Shown in pieces: positions 27,678 through 32,727 of a stretch of 40,988 nucleotides of DNA. The notes beneath the pieces are model-generated. The model worked only from the letters and a program-made list of their open reading frames with translations, ran no database searches and was not told the DNA's origin. The position numbers were made by a program, and so were the translations under genes. The stretch's first letter is position 1; each line of letters opens with the position of its first letter. The stretch is from a virus: UHGV virus genome UHGV-0200626. One strand, written 5' to 3'.

Positions 27678-29027
27678 ATGGCTACGTGGCAACAGGGTAT
27701 TAATTCTGGTGGTTTTCTGGCTGGCATCGGTACACAAAATGAGAATGCGCCAAAGGCAAGCGACATTAACGCAACGCTTGGTCTGATCCGCGAAAACAAT
27801 GAACTGGCTCGCTCAGGTGCAAATAACGTTGGTCTGACCGCGTTACGTGGTCTGGCTGGAGTTGCTGATATTTACAATCAGGAACAGCAACAGAAAGCTA
27901 TTAGTGCGTTCAATAAGGTTCACGCTGATGCATGGGCTTCTGGTGATCCATCGGGACTATTTAAGTTTGCCCAGGAAAATCCAGCGTTTGTTGCACAGGC
28001 ACAACAGGCGTTTTCCGGTCTTAATGATCAGCAACGCAACGATATGGGCGATTTAGCCATGAGGGCTAACGTCGCTCTTTCTCAGGGACCGGAAGCCTAC
28101 AGTAAATTCATTACTGACAACAAGGACAGGTTAAATCGCGTGGGGGCGAATGCTGACTGGATGATTCAGACAGGTATCCAGAATCCCGAGCAGCTATCAC
28201 ACATGCTGACTACTATGTCTCTCGGTGCGCTTGGACCAGAAAAGGCGTTTGCTGTTCAGGATAAGATGGCTGGTCGCCAACTTGAGAAAGGGCGATTGGA
28301 TGAAAGCATCCGTCAGGCTGATATGGAGAATGCGAGAGGATGGGCAAATATCCAGAACGCTCAACTAGACAGGGCTCAGCGGGCACAAATGCATAATGAT
28401 AACGTCGCCCTGAAGTTGCAGGAATTAGGTATGAAGCAACAGGAAAGCGGAAAGATTGACCCAAAACTTGTTCGAGATCTGAACAGTGATATTAATGGGT
28501 TCTCAAAGAATTATTCTGCAATGCGCAGTGCTTCTGACAACCTACAAGCCCTTGGGAAGCGCAACACTCCAGCCGCGCAGTTGGGAATGATTTTCAACTA
28601 TATGAAATCGCTGGATCCGCAATCTGTGGTACGCGAAGGTGAGCAAGTGCAGGTAAAACGCACTGATGGAATATTCGGCACACTTGGTAACTATGTTAGC
28701 CAATTATCTAACGGCAAGATGCTGAATAATGAGCAAGTCCAAGACTTAATCAACACCTCAAAACTGATGGCAAATACTGAAGGCGAAAAGTTTAACCAGC
28801 AAATGGATGATTATCTTTCAACTTATGGAGATTCTCTCCCCAGCGGACTAACTAAGCAATTGCAATCCAGAAAAGCCAAGCTGTATGAAGATATTCAGCA
28901 GCCTGCGCAACAACAGACACAACAAGCAACATCTGGCGGTCAAACATTTCGAGAAGGTATGACCGCGAAAAATCCTAAAACTGGTCAGAAAATTATTTAC
29001 AGGAACGGACAATGGCAACCAATGTAG
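27678..29027 (+). CDS. Ejection protein (P22 gp20-like)
   Basis: 449 aa; synteny with the P22 injection-protein cluster. Confidence 0.5.
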
Positions 29028-31180
29028 GTTTACCAGAGGGGTTTGTTCTGGATGAACAGCCTGATAACTCACAACTTCCTGATGGCTTTGTGCTTAATTC
29101 CCAACCAGAACAGCAGCAATCTCCTTTGGTTTCACCAGAGGAAAATTCCAGACAGGAAAATGTTGTTAATAATGCTAACGGTTTCGACCGTTTTATGTAT
29201 GGCGTTCTCAGTGGATTGATGGATGTTGGTAAAGGTGTTGGCCTGTTTCAGGATATGACACCAGAAGAGCAAGCCGCAATTCAGTCTCTACAGCAGAAGT
29301 TAGCGGCAAAACCATCAACCGCACAAGATGTTGGTGAGTTTGTTGGACAAGCAGCGCCATTTGTTAGTGGTGGTGGGATTATTTCTCAGGTTCCGAAAGG
29401 GGCGGCAAGGCTGGCTGCCGCCGCAGGGCTTGGTGCGGTTGAAGGTGGTGTTGTTGCTAACGGAACCGGTGGCAATGTAACTACAGGGGCGGCTATAGGT
29501 GCTGCCGCTGGTCCAATTGCTGAATTGGCATCTCCAGTGATTAGCAAAGCAGCCAGTGCGGTTACGAAGAGGTTTAGGCCTCCATCGGCAGAAATGTCTC
29601 AGGCATCTGAACTTAGTGGAATGGCGAGGGTTGCAACGAAAGCTACAGATGTGAATCCAATAACAGGAAACAGATCTGGTTTAAATGCTCTCGCGGAAGC
29701 TGTTTCACCAGATGATTCTGTGCTACAGGCCGCCCGCAATCTTGGGATGGAGGATGCCTTAACTCCCGGCATGTACTCCAGCAACCCTTCTTACCGCGCG
29801 TTTGAAAATGCTTTAGCTGCAACCCCAGGGAATAAACTGTTCCACGCACAGCGAGAGGCCATTAGTAGGCTTGGAGAGCAGGCAGATAAATTTATTAATG
29901 ATTTTGGTGGGAGCGTTGATAAGGACTTTATCAATCAAAAGGTCAAAAGCTCTTATGAGGAGTTAAGATCAAACCTGAAGCGCCAAGAAGACACTCTATA
30001 CAATCAAATTAGAGCAAAAATTCCAACAAGAGCTACCGTAGATACCACCCATACCACTAACGCCATTGAGGATATTGCAGATGATGTCGGTGGGCTAGAA
30101 AAACTAAAATCGCTATATCCTCAACTGTCAAAGACCTTGGAACAAATAGACCCAAACACCGCCCCGACTTATGGTCTTCTTGATGCAGTTCGACGGCAGG
30201 TTGGAAGGGCTCTTGGCAAAGAGATGGATAAAGGGCCATATAGCGGCATCGACGCTCGGCACCTTGGAATTATTGAAAGCGCACTGATACAAGATCAGGG
30301 AGCCGCTGCTGCCAAATATGGTGCAGAGGATACATGGAATTTAGCTAGAGAGATCGGGAGAAAGAGATTCGCAGTGCAGGCAGCCGCTGTTCAAAATCTT
30401 GGCAGAGACTTGGATAAAGGAATAGTGCCGCAATTACAGCAAGCTATCGTCGATATGTCTCAAGGAAAGGGCGGTGACTTCCGTCGCCTAGTTTCAAATC
30501 TTCCTGATGACATGGTGCAACCAGCTGTTGCCACCGCAATGAATAGGGCTTTCACTACGTTCGCTAAATCTCCCGGGCAGTCACTTGGTGTTCCTGGATT
30601 TGTTAAGTGGTATGGAGGGCTATCAAGAAACAAATCAAATATGCAGGCATTGAGCCGGGCAATTGGCTATCCGGCTACGCGTAGGTTGAGAAACATCTAT
30701 GAGGTGGCTTCTGGCATGCAAAGGGTGGGCAGCGAGAAGGTGTATTCCTCCTCTCAAATTGACCGGATGATGAATCAGTTCGCAGGAGAGAAGGGAATGC
30801 TTGGGCGTATATATGGAATAGGAAAAGACGTGGCTAAAGCAGAAGGGCTAACCACAGCCATCGGAGCGCCTGGAGCCGGTACGGCAGGGGTACTCTTTAG
30901 CCTCCTCCGTTCTGGTAAAAACTCAAGAATGGCTGCCGCTGATGAATTAATAGCATCTCCGGCTTTTAAAAATCTCTCAAAAAGGATTGCCGCAGGTCAC
31001 GCCAGCACCCCAGCATCTAGGAAATCGGTGGATGCTTCAATGCAGAAAGTGAAACCATATAGGGATTGGGTAAATACGCTATCAGCGGACGAGAAGAAAA
31101 ATCTAGCCCGCGTTGGTATTGTCGCTTTTCTCAGTAGTAACGATTCTTTGCCCACAGAGCAACAAGCAGGGCAACAATAA
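29012..31180 (+). CDS. Ejection protein (P22 gp16-like)
   Basis: 722 aa, last gene of the ejection cluster; synteny. Confidence 0.5.
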
Positions 31181-31225
31181 TCCAACCGACTGTTACCATA
31201 TTAACCTCCCGATAGCCATGGATGG

Positions 31226-31549
31226 CTATTCTGACATCCTTTTTAATTTATTGTATGACTCTATAGAATCTGTGCACAACTTCATGAACTCTTGAAGTGA
31301 CATTCCTAGGCGAGAAATTTCCGTATTCAAAAAACGTTCAATAAATTCATCTCCGCCGGGCATCTGTGTTGCTTCTTGAAAAGCAAACATTTGTTTAAAT
31401 GTTCCACACATACCAGCAACTTTAGCTGTAACTAACATGTCGTTAGCAAATTTCAGATCCTTATCTTGCGATTGTGCAAGACCACTAATTAGAAAACAGA
31501 ATGCACCTATAACCCATCGCTTCACACCAACCTCCTTAGTTTTGAGCAT
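31226..31549 (-). CDS. Secreted/periplasmic protein of unknown function (predicted signal peptide)
   Basis: 107 aa; N-terminus KRWVIGAFCFLISGLAQSQD looks like a Sec signal peptide; at the P22 sieA-equivalent position. Confidence 0.45.
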   Translation of the reverse strand: MLKTKEVGVKRWVIGAFCFLISGLAQSQDKDLKFANDMLVTAKVAGMCGTFKQMFAFQEATQMPGGDEFIERFLNTEISRLGMSLQEFMKLCTDSIESYNKLKRMSE

Positions 31550-31578
31550 GACGAAATTAACCAGCCATCAGGCTGGTA

Positions 31579-31761
31579 TTAGTCACATTCTATTTCTTTT
31601 GTCGAGGTCCATACATAAGGGTCTGAGCAAACAACCTCTCCATTTATCATGACGTCATAGCCCATTAGATATGAGTTACCACCAACAATCTGAGCGGCTA
31701 TGACGCTAATGCTGGCGGCGCAGGCTGCACCAAAAACGAAACCAATTAATATATTTTTCAT
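31579..31761 (-). CDS. Small secreted or membrane peptide (signal peptide, two Cys in the mature part)
   Basis: 60 aa; [24 protein letters not shown] hydrophobic leader, then about 36 residues with two Cys. Confidence 0.4.
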
Positions 31762-31792
31762 TTTAATTCCAAATAGTTATAGGATGAAAGTT

Positions 31793-31978
31793 ATGACCAT
31801 AGAAGAACGTCTGAACAACATTGAGTTGAACCAAACCCTGCTTGACCAGCGACTTTCAGATCTTGAGCTTAAAGATCTAGATGCGCAAATATCAGAAGCA
31901 GAAGCCAAGCTCTCCAGCCTAAACCACCGCAAGAAGCAAATCCGCAACAGAATTACTCAGGGACGCGGAAGCTGTTGA
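31793..31978 (+). CDS. Possible small coiled-coil protein
   Basis: ATG 31793 with AGGA about 7 nt upstream; heptad-like sequence; 3' end overlaps the convergent minus-strand ORF by 26 bp. Confidence 0.3.
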   Translation: MTIEERLNNIELNQTLLDQRLSDLELKDLDAQISEAEAKLSSLNHRKKQIRNRITQGRGSC

Positions 31979-32162
31979 GGTGGGATGCTAGGTCTCTATC
32001 GTTAAAATCAAGGCTGCTAATCATTTCATTGTAAATGGCGTTTTTATCTTCCATTGGCAGTCTTGAGTAAACCAGACACAGAGCATATTTCAGGGAGTTT
32101 AGCTCTTTCTCTAGCTCTTCCTTGCTTGACGTTGTTGACTTAATAAACTGTTTTTTATTCAT
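31953..32162 (-). CDS. Hypothetical protein downstream of mnt
   Basis: 69 aa; ATGA overlap with mnt. Confidence 0.4.
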   Translation of the reverse strand: MNKKQFIKSTTSSKEELEKELNSLKYALCLVYSRLPMEDKNAIYNEMISSLDFNDRDLASHLNSFRVPE

Positions 32163-32410
32163 TTTGCATCCTTACCATACATGGTCTTTAGCGTCTCAAC
32201 ATCGTGTTCAAGATCTATCAATCGTGATGCTATAGTTGCAAGGTCTAGTGCTTGAATGTGTTTATTTTTTTCGGTCCACGCTTCAAGTGCCGCGACCATC
32301 TCAGCATTTAATGAACGAGAATTAGCCTCAGCCAGTTCAATAAGACGTTCCTTTATCTCTACAGGAAGCCTCAGATTCACTTGAGGGTTTTTGTACTTAC
32401 GATCAGACAT
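32159..32410 (-). CDS. mnt: Mnt-like ribbon-helix-helix repressor
   Basis: 83 aa, same length as P22 Mnt; N-terminal NLRLPVEIKERLIELAEANSRSLNAEMVAAL fits the RHH pattern; divergent from arc-ant. Confidence 0.65.
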   Translation of the reverse strand: MSDRKYKNPQVNLRLPVEIKERLIELAEANSRSLNAEMVAALEAWTEKNKHIQALDLATIASRLIDLEHDVETLKTMYGKDAK

Positions 32411-32514
32411 CGGCGCATCCTGAATAATTATTTACCACAGGATATGTAGGTATCTATTGACTATCAATGCGTACCTAAATACTATGTATGCGTACCACAT
32501 ACAAAGGAGCAAAA
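32411..32514. promoter_or_regulatory. Divergent mnt / arc-ant promoter-operator region
   Basis: 104 bp AT-rich intergenic region containing two direct ATGCGTACC copies. Confidence 0.45.
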
Positions 32515-32661
32515 ATGAAAGTTAAGACATTAAGGATGCCAGAATGGCTAGAAAAGGCTTTGGAGCAGTCCGCGAAAAAGGATGATCGGTCGTTCAGTAA
32601 TGAGGTATTGAGGAGACTAAAGGAGTCAGTAGCTAAGGATGGAATTGTTTGTCCAGAATGA
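32515..32661 (+). CDS. arc: Arc-like ribbon-helix-helix repressor
   Basis: 48 aa ORF absent from the track (below its length cutoff): MKVKTLRMPEWLEKALEQSAKKDDRSFSNEVLRRLKESVAKDGIVCPE; AGGAG upstream; position between mnt and ant. Confidence 0.55.
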   Translation: MKVKTLRMPEWLEKALEQSAKKDDRSFSNEVLRRLKESVAKDGIVCPE

Positions 32662-32727
32662 GTAAAGCCCAAGCTATTGCGAGTAGCTCGGGCTTAAATC
32701 GCCAGTAAATTTTGAGGAAAAACTGAC

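Follow-up and report, generated by a model that had tools for sequence, protein, structure and literature searches.

What do the small genes encode that a P22-like prophage carries where P22 carries sieA, and do their products work together or separately in the lysogen? The window, which is the whole 40,988-nucleotide stretch of viral DNA analysed here (UHGV-0200626), is a P22-like (Lederbergvirus) prophage. Over bases 31100-32200 it shares 97.5% identity with Escherichia phage Kapi1 (MT813197), and its gene order is that of Kapi1. A 722-aa gene on the plus strand (29012..31180) is assigned to the gp16 position because a gene annotated 'DNA transfer protein' precedes it, as in Kapi1. Its product is 98% identical to Kapi1_058 and only about 25% identical to gp16-type proteins elsewhere, and a Pfam search finds neither an SLT nor any other domain in it. 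On the opposite strand, an 83-aa mnt-type repressor of the Arc family (32159..32410, minus strand; Pfam Arc E=3e-10) would be the first gene of a minus-strand operon. This mnt-like gene has 96% identity to the CUS-3 gene annotated mnt, and past it come arc and then ant in the classic immI layout. A sar RNA-like element (Rfam RF00262) lies between arc and ant at 32661..32727 on the minus strand. Its score of 29.3 bits (E=0.004) is below the gathering score of 43, and the match is consistent with an antisense regulator of ant of the P22 immI type.

The two genes at the centre of this question, A and B, are found between the gene 16 and gene 9 homologues, where SieA is located in P22. Both the ORF list and the Kapi1 annotation agree with the initial annotation in placing them between the last ejection gene and mnt, in the sieA slot of P22. 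The sieA gene is present in only 22 of 66 P22-like phages (PMC10883804). Between mnt and the gp16-type gene, other P22-like prophages carry further exported or membrane ORFs that belong to PHROGs without known function (6067, 6823, 2651, 9924 and 32536, plus a YobH-like ORF), among them a lipoprotein and a 129-aa signal-peptide protein. Such exported, lipoprotein or membrane ORFs occur at L017 3600..3989, L062 3499..3735, L024 4308..4793, L032 4498..4929 and L015 3385..3618. The mnt-to-gp16 slot is a hotspot of envelope-directed accessory genes. The phrog_6067 protein, a 161-aa neighbour at other loci, was considered as a possible SieA and set aside after tblastn returned no P22-named record and no sieA-annotated match.

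Four small ORFs lie between the 722-aa gene and mnt, and all are genuine genes under purifying selection. Related loci were compared from IMG/VR, E. coli genomes and other assemblies, and each of the four ORFs has a pN/pS well below 1. The ratio is 0-0.22 for A among close alleles, 0-0.14 for B among close alleles (0.17-0.54 at saturating distances) and about 0.1 for D. The part of B that is not overlapped has five synonymous variable sites and one non-synonymous. For C, 25 distinct alleles differ by 0-4 non-synonymous versus 2-9 synonymous changes, with about 15 synonymous and 4 non-synonymous variable sites. The two co-oriented minus-strand ORFs and the plus-strand ORF that were first picked out are thus all present in the ORF listing and all under selection as coding sequence.

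Gene C (31793..31978, plus strand) encodes a 61-aa helical coiled-coil protein with a basic tail, and it sits on the late-gene strand inside what would be a minus-strand operon. The suggestion that this convergent coiled-coil ORF is a gene is upheld by the purifying selection on it, and its overlap with a neighbour is also correct, the neighbour being the 3' end of D (31953..31978). Gene D (31953..32162, minus strand; phrog_16466, E=5e-51) encodes a cytoplasmic-looking protein of 69 aa and meets C tail to tail. C keeps 93-100% amino-acid identity in all mosaic arrangements, while the flanking genes on both sides vary. A longer form of C with a start at 31700 would have 92 aa and carries the RefSeq label 'XhlA family'. 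This form is probably an over-extension, and three results speak against it and its label. The Pfam XhlA model scores 12.3 bits against C (E=0.19; cut-off 34.7), phrog_7586 covers only residues 32-92 of the long form, which is the 61-aa part, and the ORF is 61 aa at loci where B is missing. C has in common with XhlA (PF10779) a short coiled-coil region; it differs in having no C-terminal membrane helix and in that its conserved unit is the 61-aa form. Only the unlikely long form overlaps B. In RefSeq/PGAP annotations, an ORF of 89-92 aa named 'hemolysin XhlA family protein' is often placed antisense across the 5' part of B, which then goes unannotated.

Gene A was initially described as encoding 107 aa, a length that corresponds to the longest ORF (31226..31549, minus strand, ATG at 31549) and is a mechanical maximum. 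The true start is most likely the GTG at 31525, because the Shine-Dalgarno sequence TAAGGAGGT is located 5 nt upstream of it and the A homologues begin with MKRW in the family alignment. Gene A (31226..31525, minus strand) would therefore encode a 99-aa precursor, and the length of 107 aa is to be corrected accordingly. The precursor has a predicted Sec-type signal peptide with cleavage at AQS|QDK, which would leave a mature protein of 80 aa. A heuristic scan of 86 diverse relatives finds a basic n-region in 82, a hydrophobic core in 83 and a -3/-1 site in all 86. The n-region, h-region and cleavage site are kept while the sequence varies, as would be predicted for export by Sec and signal peptidase I.

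The mature part of A has exactly two cysteines in 80 of the 86 family members. Invariant or near-invariant positions in the alignment are K35, G38, C40, G41, F49, Q50, T53, G58, F61, R64, F65, E69, R72, C84 and Y91. An AF2 model (mean pLDDT 81; 84-96 in the mature part) is a three-helix bundle with helices at 5-53, 58-73 and 77-98, in which the conserved Cys40 is on helix 1 and Cys84 on helix 3. In the model and alignments together, the almost invariant T-x-M-P-G-G-D-E-F forms the loop that links helix 1 to helix 2 and extends into the beginning of the latter. Mature A is accordingly modelled as a periplasmic three-helix protein. A Foldseek search of this model against BFVD and PDB returns nothing at E<=0.001.

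The initial annotation recognised no homologue of either protein, and yet both belong to large catalogued families, A to phrog_19844 and B to phrog_37095. A matches the full-length phrog_19844 HMM with E=3e-27, and all 86 of its sampled relatives match the same family. An exhaustive profile search places 275 clusters at 50% identity in the A family, which is Proteobacteria-wide and includes relatives from Limnobaculum, Yersinia, Pseudomonas, Methylophaga, Nitrosomonas, Burkholderiales and others. Beyond the P22-like phages, A usually occurs as a single cargo gene in Gamma- and Betaproteobacteria, beside integrases, AlpA, a Bro-N protein, a satellite-type primase (Toprim/DUF927) or phage tail genes. 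Some of these loci are small integrative elements that look satellite- or PICI-like (L069 5322..9538; L077 1298..6231). Both PHROGs are annotated 'unknown function', so that membership gives no mechanism, and the source names of the family relatives are all 'hypothetical protein'.

Gene B (31579..31761, minus strand; phrog_37095, E=2e-46) encodes a 60-aa precursor. A profile search for B yields 562 clusters (90% identity), the majority with a length of exactly 60 aa, and 90 aligned members of this length contain zero indels. Conservation is highest at G7 (88/90), G11 (89/90), A22 (89/90), and C45 and C59 (89/90). The predicted cleavage site, A/V20-x-A22|A23, is kept at its first position in 80 members, at A22 in 89 and at A23 in 80. 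Cleavage here would release an acidic peptide of 38 aa that contains Cys45 and Cys59 and ends in EIECD, and two cysteines are present in the mature part of all 90 members. The earlier picture of a mature peptide with two cysteines is retained, and its length of about 36 aa is close to the 38 aa given by the cleavage-site alignment. The n-, h- and c-regions and the conserved A-x-A site again predict Sec export with cleavage by signal peptidase I. The hydrophobic segment is long (about 22 aa) and has a G7xxxG11xxxG/A15xxxS/T19 stripe. Because conservation of this stripe is odd for a segment that is merely cleaved off, an uncleaved, membrane-anchored form of B may possibly exist. The AF2 model of B, a helix at 2-27 and a hairpin at 35-47, has low confidence (pLDDT 64) and is too poor for a fold search; the models of A and B each have only one hydrophobic segment.

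The proposal that both proteins have signal peptides is borne out by two lines of evidence that agree. The Kapi1 GenBank record has the DeepTMHMM note 'signal residues 1-22' on Kapi1_059 and on Kapi1_060, the orthologues of A and B, and the heuristics above hold family-wide. Other kinds of leader were considered. A lipobox ([LVI][ASTVI][GAS]C) at the end of the signal peptide is found in one of 86 A members and in none of 90 B members, which rules out a lipoprotein (SPase II) reading of either protein. A double-glycine bacteriocin leader for B (…VGG|N) is also rejected, since the GG varies to GS, GN or GD and the leader is hydrophobic.

In the window, A and B are adjacent, co-oriented and 53 nt apart, as might be expected if they formed a two-component unit of a secreted peptide plus a partner, carrier or immunity protein, and seven IMG/VR contigs carry members of both families. 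These are, however, only 7 of the 54 distinct contigs that carry either family; B is present at 7 of 40 A loci and A at 7 of 21 B loci. In 5426 complete E. coli genomes, the A allele occurs in 7 and the B allele in 36. The order also changes. Read in the direction of mnt, the arrangement is mnt-D-(C)-B-A in the window, mnt-D-(C)-A at other loci, and mnt-A'-(C)-B where A' is 47% identical to A. Further arrangements are mnt-A'' alone, mnt-B alone (Citrobacter, Serratia) and tailspike/B/157-aa ORF (Klebsiella). A and B assort independently and are not a pair, because co-carriage is low, order varies, and each can follow mnt directly without the other. The secreted peptide with a partner protein that the initial annotation had in mind does not survive this comparison, and we regard a two-component unit as highly improbable. 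Since both families are widespread and move independently among mobile elements, A and B are ordinary accessory genes rather than a toxin and its partner: real, unrelated, independently mobile prophage ('moron') genes. Around distant homologues of A and B, no conserved neighbours were found beyond hallmarks of mobile elements.

How these genes are transcribed bears on when their products could act. A- and B-family genes are on the mnt strand at every P22-like locus examined. The mnt stop and the D start overlap as ATGA at 32159..32162. An A-family start sits on the mnt stop in the same way at two loci (L033, L021) and a B-family start does so at another (L006), and L017 has the order mnt-ATGA-129-aa exported protein-A. 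Two overlapping sigma-70-like matches at 32427..32467 (minus strand; 9/12) are candidates for Pmnt and the only such minus-strand matches upstream of A and B. Between 31526 and 32420 there is no better minus-strand promoter than these candidates, and the internal matches for B and A reach 8/12. From the ATGA couplings, the common strand and the promoter matches that occur only upstream of mnt, we infer a single mnt-D-B-A transcript that would run antisense across C. B and A are here 400-900 nt downstream of mnt, beyond this antisense gene. An RNA hairpin is predicted at 31553..31575 (minus strand), between the B stop and the A start, and is followed by UUAAUUU. It has a folding energy of -15.7 kcal/mol (z = -3.87), which 1 of 200 shuffles equals, and it could possibly be a leaky terminator, an attenuator or a transcript-stabilising element.

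Transcription from Pmnt is doubtful in the Kapi1 lysogen. By RNA-seq of this lysogen, mnt is below the detection threshold, and Kapi1_059-062 are absent from the list of undetected genes (PMC12922286). With mnt undetected and these genes not listed as undetected, transcription of A and B may be independent of Pmnt.

What could two unrelated exported proteins do at this position? Our preferred reading is that A and B are independent accessory genes of the mnt operon whose products, exported to the envelope, each exclude incoming phages as SieA and Spackle do. We consider this quite possible, if short of probable, and propose it because of the SieA slot, the operon structure, and analogy with SieA and T4 Spackle. 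Superinfection exclusion was already a candidate role in the initial annotation. Transcription of both genes would run on the prophage-maintenance strand, most likely with Pmnt as the promoter and mnt-D-B-A as the transcript, and their products would be exported through Sec. A would be cut after AQS to give an 80-aa periplasmic three-helix bundle, probably clamped by a Cys40-Cys84 disulfide, that displays the almost invariant loop T-x-M-P-G-G-D-E-F. B would be cut after A22, or possibly anchored by its glycine-zipper helix, and would present a 38-aa acidic hairpin with a Cys45-Cys59 disulfide. In the lysogen envelope, each protein could then act alone against incoming phages by binding a conserved component that DNA entry requires in the periplasm or inner membrane. 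Candidate targets are a cell-wall-cutting or conduit-forming ejection protein, or a host factor that such a protein uses.

The two model systems resemble A and B in different respects. T4 Spackle (Sp) is a periplasmic inhibitor of the gp5 tail lysozyme whose precursor is small (about 100 aa) and has a Sec signal peptide, and whose mature protein is helical and periplasmic. A is predicted to share the precursor length, the Sec signal and the helical periplasmic mature form, and it shows no sequence or fold similarity to the solved Spackle structures. P22 SieA, an inner-membrane protein of about 19 kDa, is polytopic and carries the motif FxRYPxEAxxFNK (PMC10883804). A and B have in common with SieA the same slot (gene 16 to the mnt/gene 9 region), the strand logic, the status of prophage accessory genes and a product predicted to be directed to the envelope. 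Unlike the polytopic SieA, A is a predicted helical protein that is soluble in the periplasm, B is predicted to be either a single-helix or a secreted protein of 60 aa, and the SieA motif is absent from both.

No similarity of A or B to SieA, Spackle or any PADLOC model was found. When the five small proteins are scanned against Pfam, NCBIfam and PADLOC, the sole significant match is Arc for mnt. The best PADLOC-DB matches, E=0.0012 for the plus-strand ORF and E=0.0047 for A over 26 residues, are marginal coiled-coil or short matches. Pfam scans of the 86 A and 90 B relatives yield scattered weak matches only and no Pfam family for A, and PDB sequence searches with four family profiles return nothing below E=0.4.

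A may instead be an orphan periplasmic immunity protein or enzyme inhibitor, Ivy/PliC-like or Spackle-like, that neutralises a conserved muramidase or lytic transglycosylase active in the periplasm, whether this enzyme comes from competitors, from the host as lysozyme or from phage virions. A small, periplasmic protein with a predicted disulfide and one extremely conserved loop in many hosts would suit such a function, as would its occurrence as lone cargo on many kinds of mobile element, and in several P22-like prophages the gp16-type gene beside A carries an SLT domain. The adjacent 722-aa ejection protein of the window, however, has no such domain, neither in fold nor in sequence does A resemble Ivy, PliC/MliC, PliG, Spackle or T6SS immunity proteins, and none of the A neighbourhoods examined contains a linked toxin gene. 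We consider this role for A unlikely.

B raises a different alternative. Like the MgrB-type regulators, it is very short and has a single hydrophobic helix at the N-terminus, followed by a short tail in the periplasm with two conserved cysteines. It differs from them in being unrelated in sequence and in its conserved signal-peptidase-type A-x-A site, because of which it is probably released. A and B could be envelope fitness or lysogenic-conversion factors unrelated to exclusion, acting together or separately. A would bind a host periplasmic component and B would modulate a membrane sensor or transporter, with effects on envelope physiology, stress signalling or host colonisation. An MgrB-like architecture of B, with its single N-terminal helix, small-residue stripe and short periplasmic part with a Cys pair, agrees with this possibility. 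So do the B homologues in apparently ordinary chromosomal surroundings, which are found in a Betaproteobacterium and a metagenomic contig (L083, L089) and fit a host small-protein family that phages have borrowed for another purpose. Kapi1 is also reported to change host competitiveness and O-antigen through unidentified genes, although its authors ascribe the O-antigen change to the tailspike (PMC8787464). B nevertheless has no homology to MgrB or another characterised small protein, and the conserved A/V-x-A|A site speaks for cleavage, not anchoring. This role in envelope fitness seems to us somewhat unlikely.

Several observations count against exclusion. With Kapi1 as its only prophage, a lysogen is reported to be incompletely protected from superinfection by Kapi1 (PMC11773190). 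Neither A nor B resembles an exclusion or defence protein in the searches above, mnt is undetected in the Kapi1 lysogen, B homologues also sit in apparently non-phage chromosomal surroundings, and the glycine-zipper stripe of B is unusual for a signal peptide that is cut off and discarded. Another observation on Kapi1 bears on function. A deletion of 'hyp19' in Kapi1 failed, and plasmids with the flanks of hyp19 were toxic in non-lysogens (PMC8787464). We infer that hyp19 is probably Kapi1_058, the gene at the gp16 position, because hyp24 and hyp25 flank the integrase and because of the reported 2% query coverage. The downstream flank would therefore hold the A orthologue and perhaps the B orthologue, so that the toxicity provides a circumstantial lead on these genes.

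In its strongest form, the exclusion reading would make A and B each the founder of a new family of single-gene exclusion or defence proteins that act in the periplasm, are carried by prophages, satellites and islands across Proteobacteria, and block a conserved envelope step of phage DNA entry. This is a speculative extension that we hold to be doubtful. In the case of A, ejected virion proteins might be stopped from cutting the cell wall or forming a conduit, and B would be an unusually small secreted effector of 38 aa.

Both PHROG families were already catalogued, and the signal peptides are in the Kapi1 GenBank record. What is new is the size and breadth of both families, their mutual independence, their coupling to mnt and the conflict with the 'XhlA' annotation, as over-long 'XhlA' ORF calls in RefSeq have caused B to be under-reported. 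In P22-like phages without sieA, uncharacterised exported proteins take its place in the slot. Of these proteins, A and B rank among the most widespread, and the range of each extends well outside P22-like phages. Should either of them exclude phages, it would represent an exclusion mechanism that works in the periplasm through a single gene and a very small effector, and a recurrent cargo gene of satellites and islands would be explained.
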